From an uncultured Mycoplasma sp. (GTDB taxonomy: Bacteria > Bacillota_I > Bacilli_A > RF39 > UBA660), in contig CAMEXD010000004.1 in the NCBI GenBank assembly GCA_945947035.1, forward strand, positions 2,362 to 66,361: 64,000 bases of DNA, given 5' to 3'. The notes beneath the pieces are model-generated. The model saw nothing but the letters and a program-made list of their open reading frames with translations, was not told the DNA's origin and did not search any database. This document shows, in pieces, positions 52,387-53,238 of this stretch. Both the position numbers and the translations under genes were made by a program. Positions within the stretch are counted from its first letter, which is position 1; every line of letters begins with the position of its first letter.

Positions 52387-52825
52387 GTCGCAAGTTAGAA
52401 TGATAACAACTAAGAAAGGTTTTGATGAACTAAAAAAATTTAATGATAAATATTTATCAGATAATAAAAATATCAATGGTTTTGAAGAGTATAACTTGAT
52501 GGATAATCTAAATATAAAAGAAGAAGATAATAATTCAGTATATTTTGGTTGGGATTGGGTTAAATGGTATGAAGGAAGTTATAAAGGTGTTGATGCCATT
52601 ATGGAAGGATTAAACCATTTAGAAGAAAAAGATTTGTCTTATAGGTTTTCAAGATTAGGTGAAGATTATGATGATTATGAAGAGCATTATCATGATTCAG
52701 AAAAAGAAGAAGAACAGGGATTAGAATTTCCTTATGTTATTCGTGATTTTGATGATGATGAAATGGTAAATGAATTAGAAAATAACAAAAAAGCTGATAA
52801 AAATAAAGAAGAGGCAGACTTATGA
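52355..52825 (+). CDS. highly acidic hypothetical protein
   Basis: Strongly acidic, about 156 aa, Trp-rich core. Confidence 0.3.
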   Translation: MIAGRKIMGYRSQVRMITTKKGFDELKKFNDKYLSDNKNINGFEEYNLMDNLNIKEEDNNSVYFGWDWVKWYEGSYKGVDAIMEGLNHLEEKDLSYRFSRLGEDYDDYEEHYHDSEKEEEQGLEFPYVIRDFDDDEMVNELENNKKADKNKEEADL

Positions 52826-53238
52826 AAGCATCAATTTATTGCAGGGTTGGAAATATTCAACAAACTATAAGACCAAATTGTATTCTATATCTTTATAGTA
52901 AAAATGGCGATGATTTAAGAAAGCAAGAAATATATTTAAAAGGATATTGTGAAATATGGGAATTAAAGCCAAGAAAAATTTATAAAGATACTGGTAAAAA
53001 TATTCTTGATAATAAACCAAATCTAAAACAATTATTAATAGAAAATCAAGATAAAGATATTATTATTTTAAATAATACAAGATTAAGTAGAAACTATGAA
53101 GAGTTATTTCCAATAGCAGATATTTGTAAAGACAATAATTTACGAATATTTAGTGCTAGAGAAAATGATTTTATATTTGATGAATATTTTAATGTTTTTA
53201 GAAAAACTCAAGAACAAGTTTTAAATAAAGAATTATAA
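52822..53238 (+). CDS. serine-recombinase (resolvase) catalytic-domain-like protein lacking the nucleophilic Ser and the HTH domain
   Basis: ASIYCRVGNIQQ aligns with resolvase Y-x-R-V-S-x-x-x-Q with the Ser replaced by Gly. KDTGKNILDNKPNLKQLL and IIILNNTRLSRN align with the D..SG...RP.L..LL and vv..lDRL.R blocks. 138 aa only. Confidence 0.45.
   Translation: MKASIYCRVGNIQQTIRPNCILYLYSKNGDDLRKQEIYLKGYCEIWELKPRKIYKDTGKNILDNKPNLKQLLIENQDKDIIILNNTRLSRNYEELFPIADICKDNNLRIFSARENDFIFDEYFNVFRKTQEQVLNKEL

Follow-up and report, generated by a model that had tools for sequence, protein, structure and literature searches.

A pseudo-enzyme variant of the serine-recombinase fold encoded beside DUF3846 within a conjugative transfer operon of uncultured gut Bacilli

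The catalytic domain of the serine recombinases is best understood from Tn3 resolvase, in which the residues Y6, R8, S10, D36, R68 and R71 are crucial for catalysis (Olorunniji and Stark, PMC2794168). In the present study, we analysed a resolvase-like open reading frame (ORF) in a stretch of 64,000 nucleotides (hereafter the window, meaning the whole stretch) from an uncultured Mycoplasma sp. of the GTDB lineage Bacteria; Bacillota_I; Bacilli_A; RF39; UBA660 (assembly GCA_945947035.1, contig CAMEXD010000004.1, positions 2,362 to 66,361 of the forward strand). The protein family to which its product belongs is a pseudo-enzyme variant within the known serine-recombinase fold. The reading that we favour, at a probability of roughly 55%, is that this pseudo-resolvase has been kept as a non-catalytic binding or adaptor protein which, together with the DUF3846 protein encoded next to it, handles transferred DNA.

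Among described systems, the large serine recombinase TP901-1 integrase (PDB 3bvp) gave both the best Foldseek match to the predicted structure (E 7e-6, template modelling score (TM) 0.66-0.70) and the best PDB profile match (E 8e-7). With the large serine recombinases the window protein shares an MKxxIYxRV.....Q start, the typical K-x-G-x-x-L-x-x-Q loop before helix A, and the D-x-G, K/R-P-x-L and R-L-S-R blocks, but it differs in having Gly for the catalytic Ser, an 11-residue strand for beta1, Lys for R45 and T86 at the D67 equivalent; moreover, those enzymes reach ~450-600 amino acids (aa), whereas the window protein ends at 138 aa without a recombinase domain, zinc ribbon or coiled coil. 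The small serine recombinases (gamma-delta/Tn3, Sin, Hin/Gin) have the same fold, likewise match PF00239 and find their D36, R68 and R71 equivalents kept in the window protein (as D56, R87 and R90). Unlike them, it is without Ser10, the C-terminal helix-turn-helix and the helix-E motif, and it carries Y6 and R8 only on a displaced N-terminal stump; its gene is part of a transfer operon rather than a neighbour of a resolution site, and nothing implies a res, hix or crossover site. The catalytic-domain fold of the IS607-family transposases (NF033518; PDB 6dgc, 3ilx, 3lhk) is matched as well, with weak NCBIfam and PHROG matches, but the score of 25.2 bits against a cut-off of 110, over profile positions 66-150 only, does not place the protein in NF033518, and it has neither the MerR-like N-terminal DNA-binding domain, nor the nucleophile, nor the TnpB partner of these transposases. 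A partial enzyme kept for binding is familiar from the Tn5 inhibitor, which shares its gene with the active enzyme and acts on that enzyme; the present case shares the concept, but concerns a separate gene which is not closest to the integrase of its element and which is tied to DUF3846.

The ORF opens with an ATG downstream of a GAAGAGG ribosome-binding site, and this ATG overlaps the stop codon of the preceding gene, which encodes an acidic protein that we call MGYRS, as ATGA, an arrangement of translational coupling. A sequence-only reading of the window, made before any database search, had taken the product for a resolvase-like protein, and profile comparison bears this out: PF00239 (Resolvase) is matched above its gathering score of 23.3, with 26.8 bits (E 6e-6), and 30 of the 35 aligned members of the resolvase-like family match it at E <= 0.01 (best 3e-15). 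The 35 members were aligned with MAFFT, and the residue counts given below refer to this alignment unless hmmalign is named. Other searches returned weak matches, those in NCBIfam to IS607 transposase and Mpi invertase (sub-threshold) and that in a PDB sequence search to Sin. For comparison with true enzymes we used a profile of 107 bona fide serine-recombinase catalytic domains (the genuine profile), all of them homologous to P0043, which among the proteins found is the nearest bona fide recombinase. In HMMER this profile aligns the protein from residue 1, setting MKASIYCRVGNIQQT against mkaaiYIRVSteeqa with residues 1-15 at profile positions 1-15, so that G10 falls on the catalytic Ser column, as the same reading had proposed for its YxRVSxxxQ block; at this column the homolog P0009 has Ser. 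The local alignment of Pfam, covering residues 26-115, skips the N-terminal YCRVG block. A spurious N-terminal match, as the Pfam start at residue 26 might suggest, was ruled out by the full-length profile alignment together with an empirical significance test, in which the block, compared with profile positions 2-15, scored 16.6 bits and ranked first among all 51,195 14-mers that the window yields in six-frame translation; it is therefore no chance match. Its distance from Met1 is also the same as in real recombinases.

The downstream blocks noted in the sequence-only reading find their counterparts in the catalytic core as well, KDTG aligning with aDeG, NKPNLKQLL with kRpalqeLL and NNTRLSR with kldRlaR of the genuine profile, and KNGDDLRKQE matches keGvslaaQe after an insertion discussed below. 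Equally sound was the remark that the protein ends without a helix-turn-helix: Pfam detects PF00239 alone in the 138 residues and no helix-turn-helix or other DNA-binding domain, the gene downstream lies in a different frame and encodes DUF3846, all 12 of 12 close homologs measure 134-138 aa, and no family member has a DNA-binding domain, the longer ones being fusions only.

The plain exchange of Ser for Gly, by contrast, describes the protein only in part, since G10 does occupy the Ser column but the whole active-site block is displaced by an inserted or duplicated strand. Directly after the N-terminal block, HMMER places an 11-residue insertion, irpncilylys (residues 16-26), which the earlier reading had overlooked. 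An AlphaFold2 model built from 12 close homologs reached a predicted local distance difference test score (pLDDT) of 87 and a predicted TM of 0.80, with residues 1-9 below 50 and the predicted strand 21-26 at 88 or above. By DSSP, the model has strands at 21-26, 52-57, 79-82 and 108-111 and helices at 32-45, 66-74, 92-104 and 121-137, and its best 44 Foldseek matches in the PDB are all serine-recombinase catalytic domains (TM up to 0.66-0.75), including those of TP901-1 integrase, Sin, gamma-delta, Tn3, Gin, Bxb1 and IS607 TnpA. According to the model, it is the inserted segment, and not the ancestral block, that is predicted to form the central strand beta1. About one third of the family is devoid of the N-terminal block and begins a few residues before the x-I-Y-x-Y-x-K strand; therefore, in these members that strand must be beta1, and there it aligns weakly to genuine beta1, with Y23 at Y6, Y25 at R8 and K27 at S10.

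The homolog P0047 (176 aa) reveals how this came about. It has two matches to the genuine profile, residues 1-40 corresponding to profile positions 1-40 and residues 62-149 to positions 17-107, and so carries N-terminal sequence of the domain twice, as a partial tandem duplication; the first copy spans beta1, the Ser loop and helix A, with Gly at the Ser column (MRAAIYMRVGNPEQ). To judge from its sequence, the window protein looks like a shortened P0047, in which copy 1 survives as a stump (residues 1-15) and the next segment is the beta1 of copy 2, devoid of a Ser loop. We thus propose that an ancestral partial tandem duplication of the beta1/helix-A region gave rise to a second beta1 strand without a Ser loop, that this second strand (residues 21-26) has taken the central position in the sheet, and that the original beta1 with its active-site block (residues 1-15, Y6-x-R8-V-G10) remains as a flexible N-terminal stump. 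The stump is in decay, from Ser through Arg to Gly in the lineage of the window, and is gone from about one third of the family. In close relatives, the Ser codons AGT or TCT, the Arg codon AGA and the Gly codon GGA (in the window) make up a one-step series at the Ser column. Conservation of the Gly holds only at short range: it is fixed within the 90% cluster or closer, and close homologs otherwise have S, R, D or E. As a separate observation, a 141-aa protein encoded upstream of P0047 (locus L009, 134-559) contains a segment resembling resolvase beta3-alphaD-beta4 (VVVENLADITADESDLAEFMCDAAGIGVGFFE), and its gene is possibly another degenerate resolvase-like one, in tandem.

The genuine recombinases have the Y6, R8, S10, R45 and R68 equivalents in 107/107 and that of R71 in 106/107. 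In the resolvase-like family, position 10 of the stump is S in 9 members, G in 6, N in 5 and another residue in 8, and is missing in 7. Position 26, where S26 sits at the end of the predicted beta1 strand (a residue likewise overlooked earlier), is S in 18, A in 10, G in 5 and C and T in one each, and position 27 is K in 29/35; no conserved nucleophile was found in the 35-member alignment at position 10 or at positions 26/27. S26 was considered as a shifted catalytic Ser, which would have undone the claim of a lost nucleophile, and was rejected: the position varies among S, A, G, C and T, there is no Arg two residues upstream, and residues 16-26 are an insertion. In the place of R8 in the predicted beta1 stands L24 (V, L, I or C in relatives). 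The R45 equivalent, Arg in every genuine domain, is Lys (K65) in 35/35 members, or in 31/35 by a profile-based count. D56 is retained in 33/35, R87 in 26/35 and R90 in 28/35 (27 by hmmalign), and the clades P0036, P0038, P0045 and P0048 have lost R87 and R90 as well. Y23 and K65 are invariant, and Y25 (30/35), K27, C43, D56, N60 and L68 nearly so.

Helix E is the main dimer and tetramer interface of the serine recombinases and also contacts DNA. Its motif columns are gapped in 33-34 of the 35 members, the alignment of the window protein ends at profile position 109 of 148, and in the model there is only a 17-residue terminal helix, 121-137. With no nucleophile at either site, Lys for R45, no DNA-binding domain and half of helix E, the protein therefore cannot be expected to cut and rejoin DNA; on these sequence grounds the serine-recombinase catalytic domain has lost its nucleophile, has its helix E cut short and is catalytically dead. 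The suggestion of the sequence-only reading that a recombinase domain had been inactivated and recruited fits these losses, and it fits the selection under which the gene is retained.

Nei-Gojobori dN/dS against three relatives was 0.15-0.34 for the resolvase-like gene and 0-0.19 for its neighbours, and the values well below 1 therefore indicate a live gene under purifying selection. It is the least constrained of the cassette, and codons 1-17 are more relaxed (dN/dS ~0.4) in the most informative comparisons, a figure drawn from few sites. At 50% identity the family falls into 39 clusters, whose representatives are mostly 120-147 aa long. An identical protein occurs on 19 contigs, the longest of 78,834 bp, and the sole species-representative genome with a close homolog is a metagenome-assembled genome of an uncultured member of the Bacilli from mouse gut; neither a plasmid database (blastn) nor viral contigs yielded a match for the resolvase-like protein. 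One candidate, P0014 (2299 aa, rich in L, T, A and Q, with tandem repeats), was set aside as an unrelated repeat protein; its score (E 2e-29 over 10 stretches against the C-terminal helix region of the query) is apparently a spurious, repeat-driven match. A literature search for dead serine recombinases returned no result.

In its neighbourhood, the resolvase-like gene lies directly 5' of a DUF3846 gene in loci L001-L006, L013-L016 and L018, and the distant members P0036 and P0020 (27-41% identical) still directly precede it. Furthermore, in P0023, P0035 and P0042 the two are fused, and the fusions are 44-53% identical over their full length, which therefore represents one old, maintained fusion. 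In P0024 the resolvase-like domain is instead fused to the MGYRS protein, and in that locus (L012) a DUF2958 gene (831-1229) takes the usual place of DUF3846 and is followed by a single-stranded DNA-binding protein (SSB) gene. DUF3846 itself far exceeds the resolvase-like protein in conservation and in spread, with >500 homologs at E <= 1e-5 in a word-indexed search. Its AlphaFold model is confident (pLDDT 90.7) and has no similar solved structure (best TM < 0.3), its structural neighbours being uncharacterised DUF3846 proteins of tailed phages. PADLOC returned nothing for any protein of the cassette, and the literature search on DUF3846 found a sole mention, in an irrelevant paper. The invariable adjacency and the old fusion are evidence pointing to DUF3846 as the likely partner of the resolvase-like protein.

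The coordinates of the cassette, the parts of the resolvase-like gene and the recombinases of related elements are collected in Table 1. The gene belongs to a co-directional operon which runs from a sigma-r4-like gene through those for a SpaA/Cna-B adhesin, a sortase, an HTH_36 protein, the first SSB, MGYRS, the resolvase-like protein, DUF3846 and the second SSB, and continues with a pilin-like protein of the type IV secretion system, DUF8208 (VirB6-like), a VirB4-like ATPase, an M23 peptidase and a MobL relaxase. This is the transfer operon of a conjugative element of Gram-positive type from uncultured low-GC gut Bacilli, and the same gene order was seen on every contig with a homolog. The hairpin directly after the second SSB gene possibly ends or attenuates the transcript of the cassette.

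Table 1. Coordinates of the resolvase-like gene, its parts and its neighbours in the window, and of large serine recombinases in related loci
Feature	Coordinates	Strand	Remarks
SSB paralog 1, left flank of slot	51994..52386	+	PF00436, 47.9 bits; position conserved in relatives
MGYRS protein (MGYRSQVRM...)	52376..52825	+	149 aa, acidic, isoelectric point (pI) 4.4; no known family
Resolvase-like ORF	52822..53238	+	138 aa, serine-recombinase catalytic domain only, pI 8.6
Codons 1-15 (MKASIYCRVGNIQQT), displaced ancestral beta1 and active-site block (beta1 assignment predicted)	52822..52866	+	genuine-profile positions 1-15
G10 codon GGA	52849-52851	+	
Codons 16-26 (IRPNCILYLYS), insertion relative to genuine recombinases	52867..52899	+	HMMER insert states
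DUF3846 protein	53261..53644	+	127 aa, pI 4.45; PF12957, 92 bits
SSB paralog 2, right flank of cassette	53665..54045	+	PF00436, 96 bits; position conserved in all relatives
Terminator-like hairpin directly after SSB paralog 2	54044..54067	+	consensus scan; 9-bp stem, 4 GC pairs
Large serine recombinases in relatives	L027 17382-19082; L029 15757-17541; L030 17869-19623; L031 4520-6274		

The slot between the first SSB gene and DUF3846 is variable. It is empty in loci L020 and L021 (where DUF3846 is ~60% identical), holds the MGYRS gene alone in L022, L023, L027 and L029 and the resolvase-like gene alone in L014; the resolvase-like gene is therefore accessory cargo and not part of the core transfer machinery. 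The family profile detected no hidden members in the slots without a resolvase-like gene (L020-L023, L027, L029), and the slot proteins of distant relatives, considered as diverged family members, matched neither the family nor the genuine profile, being SSB1-like and MGYRS proteins. The MGYRS protein itself has no match in Pfam, NCBIfam, PHROG, PADLOC or the PDB. By their pI values (Table 1), the resolvase-like protein is the only basic one of the cassette, against acidic MGYRS and DUF3846. In distant relatives the first SSB has a conserved C-terminal extension (RYDSDGVMVWNGKRCES...EMEELLSEF) that is missing from the window copy. Additionally, in locus L021 a gene with a SieB (superinfection exclusion) domain (8948-9475) is inserted between the p87 and VirB4 homologs, which shows further variable cargo inside the transfer operon.

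As for the element as a whole, its GC content stays at 22-29% across the window, so that there is no compositional boundary; a strong hairpin at 46318-46361 (19-bp stem and T-run), which separates the MMPL/732-aa genes from the sigma-r4-like gene, could act as a terminator or as a marker of the element's left edge. The MobL-type relaxase gene (61999-63312) is interrupted by a single in-frame TAA (62722-62724), a split for which an alternative genetic code was rejected, the stop being TAA and not TGA. Relatives L001, L005, L016 and L024 have an intact relaxase gene of 437 aa; the element copy in the window has perhaps lost the ability to transfer itself.

How, then, might the adaptor work? Selection keeps the resolvase-like gene as optional cargo in the slot between the two ssb genes of the transfer operon, and starting from the observed fold, catalytic loss, insertion and duplication, selection, synteny, fusions and accessory status, we propose that its product works by binding. 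The basic resolvase-like protein would bind two acidic partners, DUF3846 and, in loci that have it, MGYRS, and the retained Asp/Lys/Arg pocket (D56, K65, R87, R90) may hold a phosphate or the DNA backbone. Together with both SSBs, the complex would then serve to establish or protect single-stranded DNA that has been transferred. A bolder form of this idea seems doubtful to us, namely that the proteins make up an undescribed pseudo-recombinase family in which the active-site strand has been swapped by internal duplication, and that the kept pocket (D56/K65/R87/R90) and a new Y23/Y25/K27 face, together with DUF3846, constitute a module that attaches to DNA, DNA ends or single-stranded DNA without cleaving it and aids newly transferred conjugative DNA in establishment or defence evasion.

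Several points weigh against the adaptor proposal. We infer the physical complex, the binding of DNA or phosphate and the role in transfer, and any 'early-entry' role is conjectural. The three DUF3846 fusions form one clade and count as one event, and adjacent co-directional genes fuse easily. With >500 matches, phages included, DUF3846 evidently does not need the resolvase-like protein, and since it has neither a known function nor a solved structural relative, the role of the cassette is a guess. The beta1 assignment comes from one AlphaFold model of 12 sequences, in which a variable alignment may be part of the reason for the low pLDDT of residues 1-9. Y-x-R-x-S/G-N is still present on the stump of many members and the old pocket residues are conserved, which may mean that the stump retains some role.

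Of the alternatives, one possible but unlikely explanation is an anti-defence or establishment factor with early expression in the recipient cell; the variable slot flanked by the ssb genes would then be a small accessory anti-defence island. It draws on the flanking ssb genes, since ssb genes mark plasmid leading regions rich in anti-defence genes (PMC11541004), a paper which, however, names no resolvase-like or DUF proteins. The occupancy of the slot (empty, MGYRS only, resolvase-like only, both, or fused) and the faster evolution of the resolvase-like gene relative to its neighbours agree with such an island, as does the presence of DUF3846 in phages. Known DNA mimics are acidic, as are the MGYRS and DUF3846 partners. 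Against this, the cassette lies ~9 kb upstream of the relaxase with secretion-system genes in between, so that its place in the leading region, the first-transferred DNA next to the origin of transfer (oriT), is conjectural, and no PADLOC model matches; besides, the explanation overlaps with the adaptor reading and does not exclude it.

We regard as quite unlikely that the protein is a regulator or decoy, forming heterodimers with the large serine integrase of the element or with the recombinases of rival elements and so poisoning or steering their reaction, in analogy to truncated transposase inhibitors. The six-frame ORFs of the window contain no other serine recombinase, and the related loci compared first contain none either. 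A bona fide large serine recombinase is present, however, on contigs whose relaxase is 78-82% identical; it measures ~555-585 aa in complete copies, scores 92-97 bits to the genuine profile and lies 5-9 kb downstream of the relaxase, after a ~670-aa protein; two N-terminal types occur, MKRKVAIYARVSTEHEEQ and MPLRVVYYARVSTDKDDQ. This serine integrase at the right end of relatives marks the element family as integrative conjugative elements, and by its position the integrase of the window is implied beyond the 64 kb. Accordingly, a bona fide recombinase elsewhere on the element, which the sequence-only reading considered, has gained ground, but not its suggestion that the resolvase-like protein could be a partner of such an enzyme. 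None of the 25 best matches of the protein among genuine recombinases is one of these integrases of relatives, so that an origin from the element's own integrase likewise finds no support, and the integrase-bearing sister elements in the sample are without the resolvase-like gene, no element being shown with both; the partnership idea is without support because of these two observations. A heterodimer would be helped by the conserved catalytic-domain core with its helix-E remnant of 17 residues, and by the fact that the closest genuine relatives, in sequence and fold, are large-type catalytic domains; nevertheless, half of helix E is missing with its motif columns, and neighbourhood and fusions point to DUF3846 and MGYRS, not to the integrase.

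Very improbable, in our judgement, is a functionless recombinase remnant in decay, left open by chance. Such a remnant would account for the missing nucleophile, DNA-binding domain and half helix E, for the weakest constraint in the cassette, for the absence of the gene from many sister elements and, in the same vein, for the nonsense codon in the relaxase of the window copy, but it would hardly show the dN/dS reported above, a length of 120-147 aa kept without frameshifts in 39 clusters down to ~25-30% identity, invariant or near-invariant Y23, K65, D56, N60 and C43, a good ribosome-binding site with translational coupling, and a DUF3846 fusion maintained at 44-53% identity. Hardly credible at all is that the protein is still an enzyme, with S26 as a shifted nucleophile or with Y23/Y25/K27 and D56/K65/R87/R90 as a new active site (for instance, of a phosphotransferase or nuclease on transferred DNA), for even with S26 at the end of predicted beta1, with Y23 and K65 invariant and Y25, K27, D56 and N60 nearly so in a very divergent family, and with the old pocket residues kept, position 26 varies, L24 stands where R8 would be, there is no DNA-binding domain, four clades (P0036, P0038, P0045, P0048) are also without R87 and R90, and we know of no precedent for Tyr/Lys chemistry on the serine-recombinase fold.

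In practice, the automatic label "recombinase family protein" would mislead a search for the integrase of the element, since the protein is not a recombinase. More broadly, the family offers a clean natural case of the passage from an enzyme fold to a non-enzyme, in which a core strand is replaced through partial duplication while the old strand decays, with the Ser, Arg and Gly intermediates still visible among relatives. The variable slot between two ssb genes also suggests a small hotspot for accessory genes in Gram-positive conjugative elements. Finally, studies of DUF3846, which phages and conjugative elements commonly carry, could start from its tight link to the resolvase-like gene, and, if the DNA-binding module were real, this link would provide the first functional handle on this widespread phage and plasmid domain.

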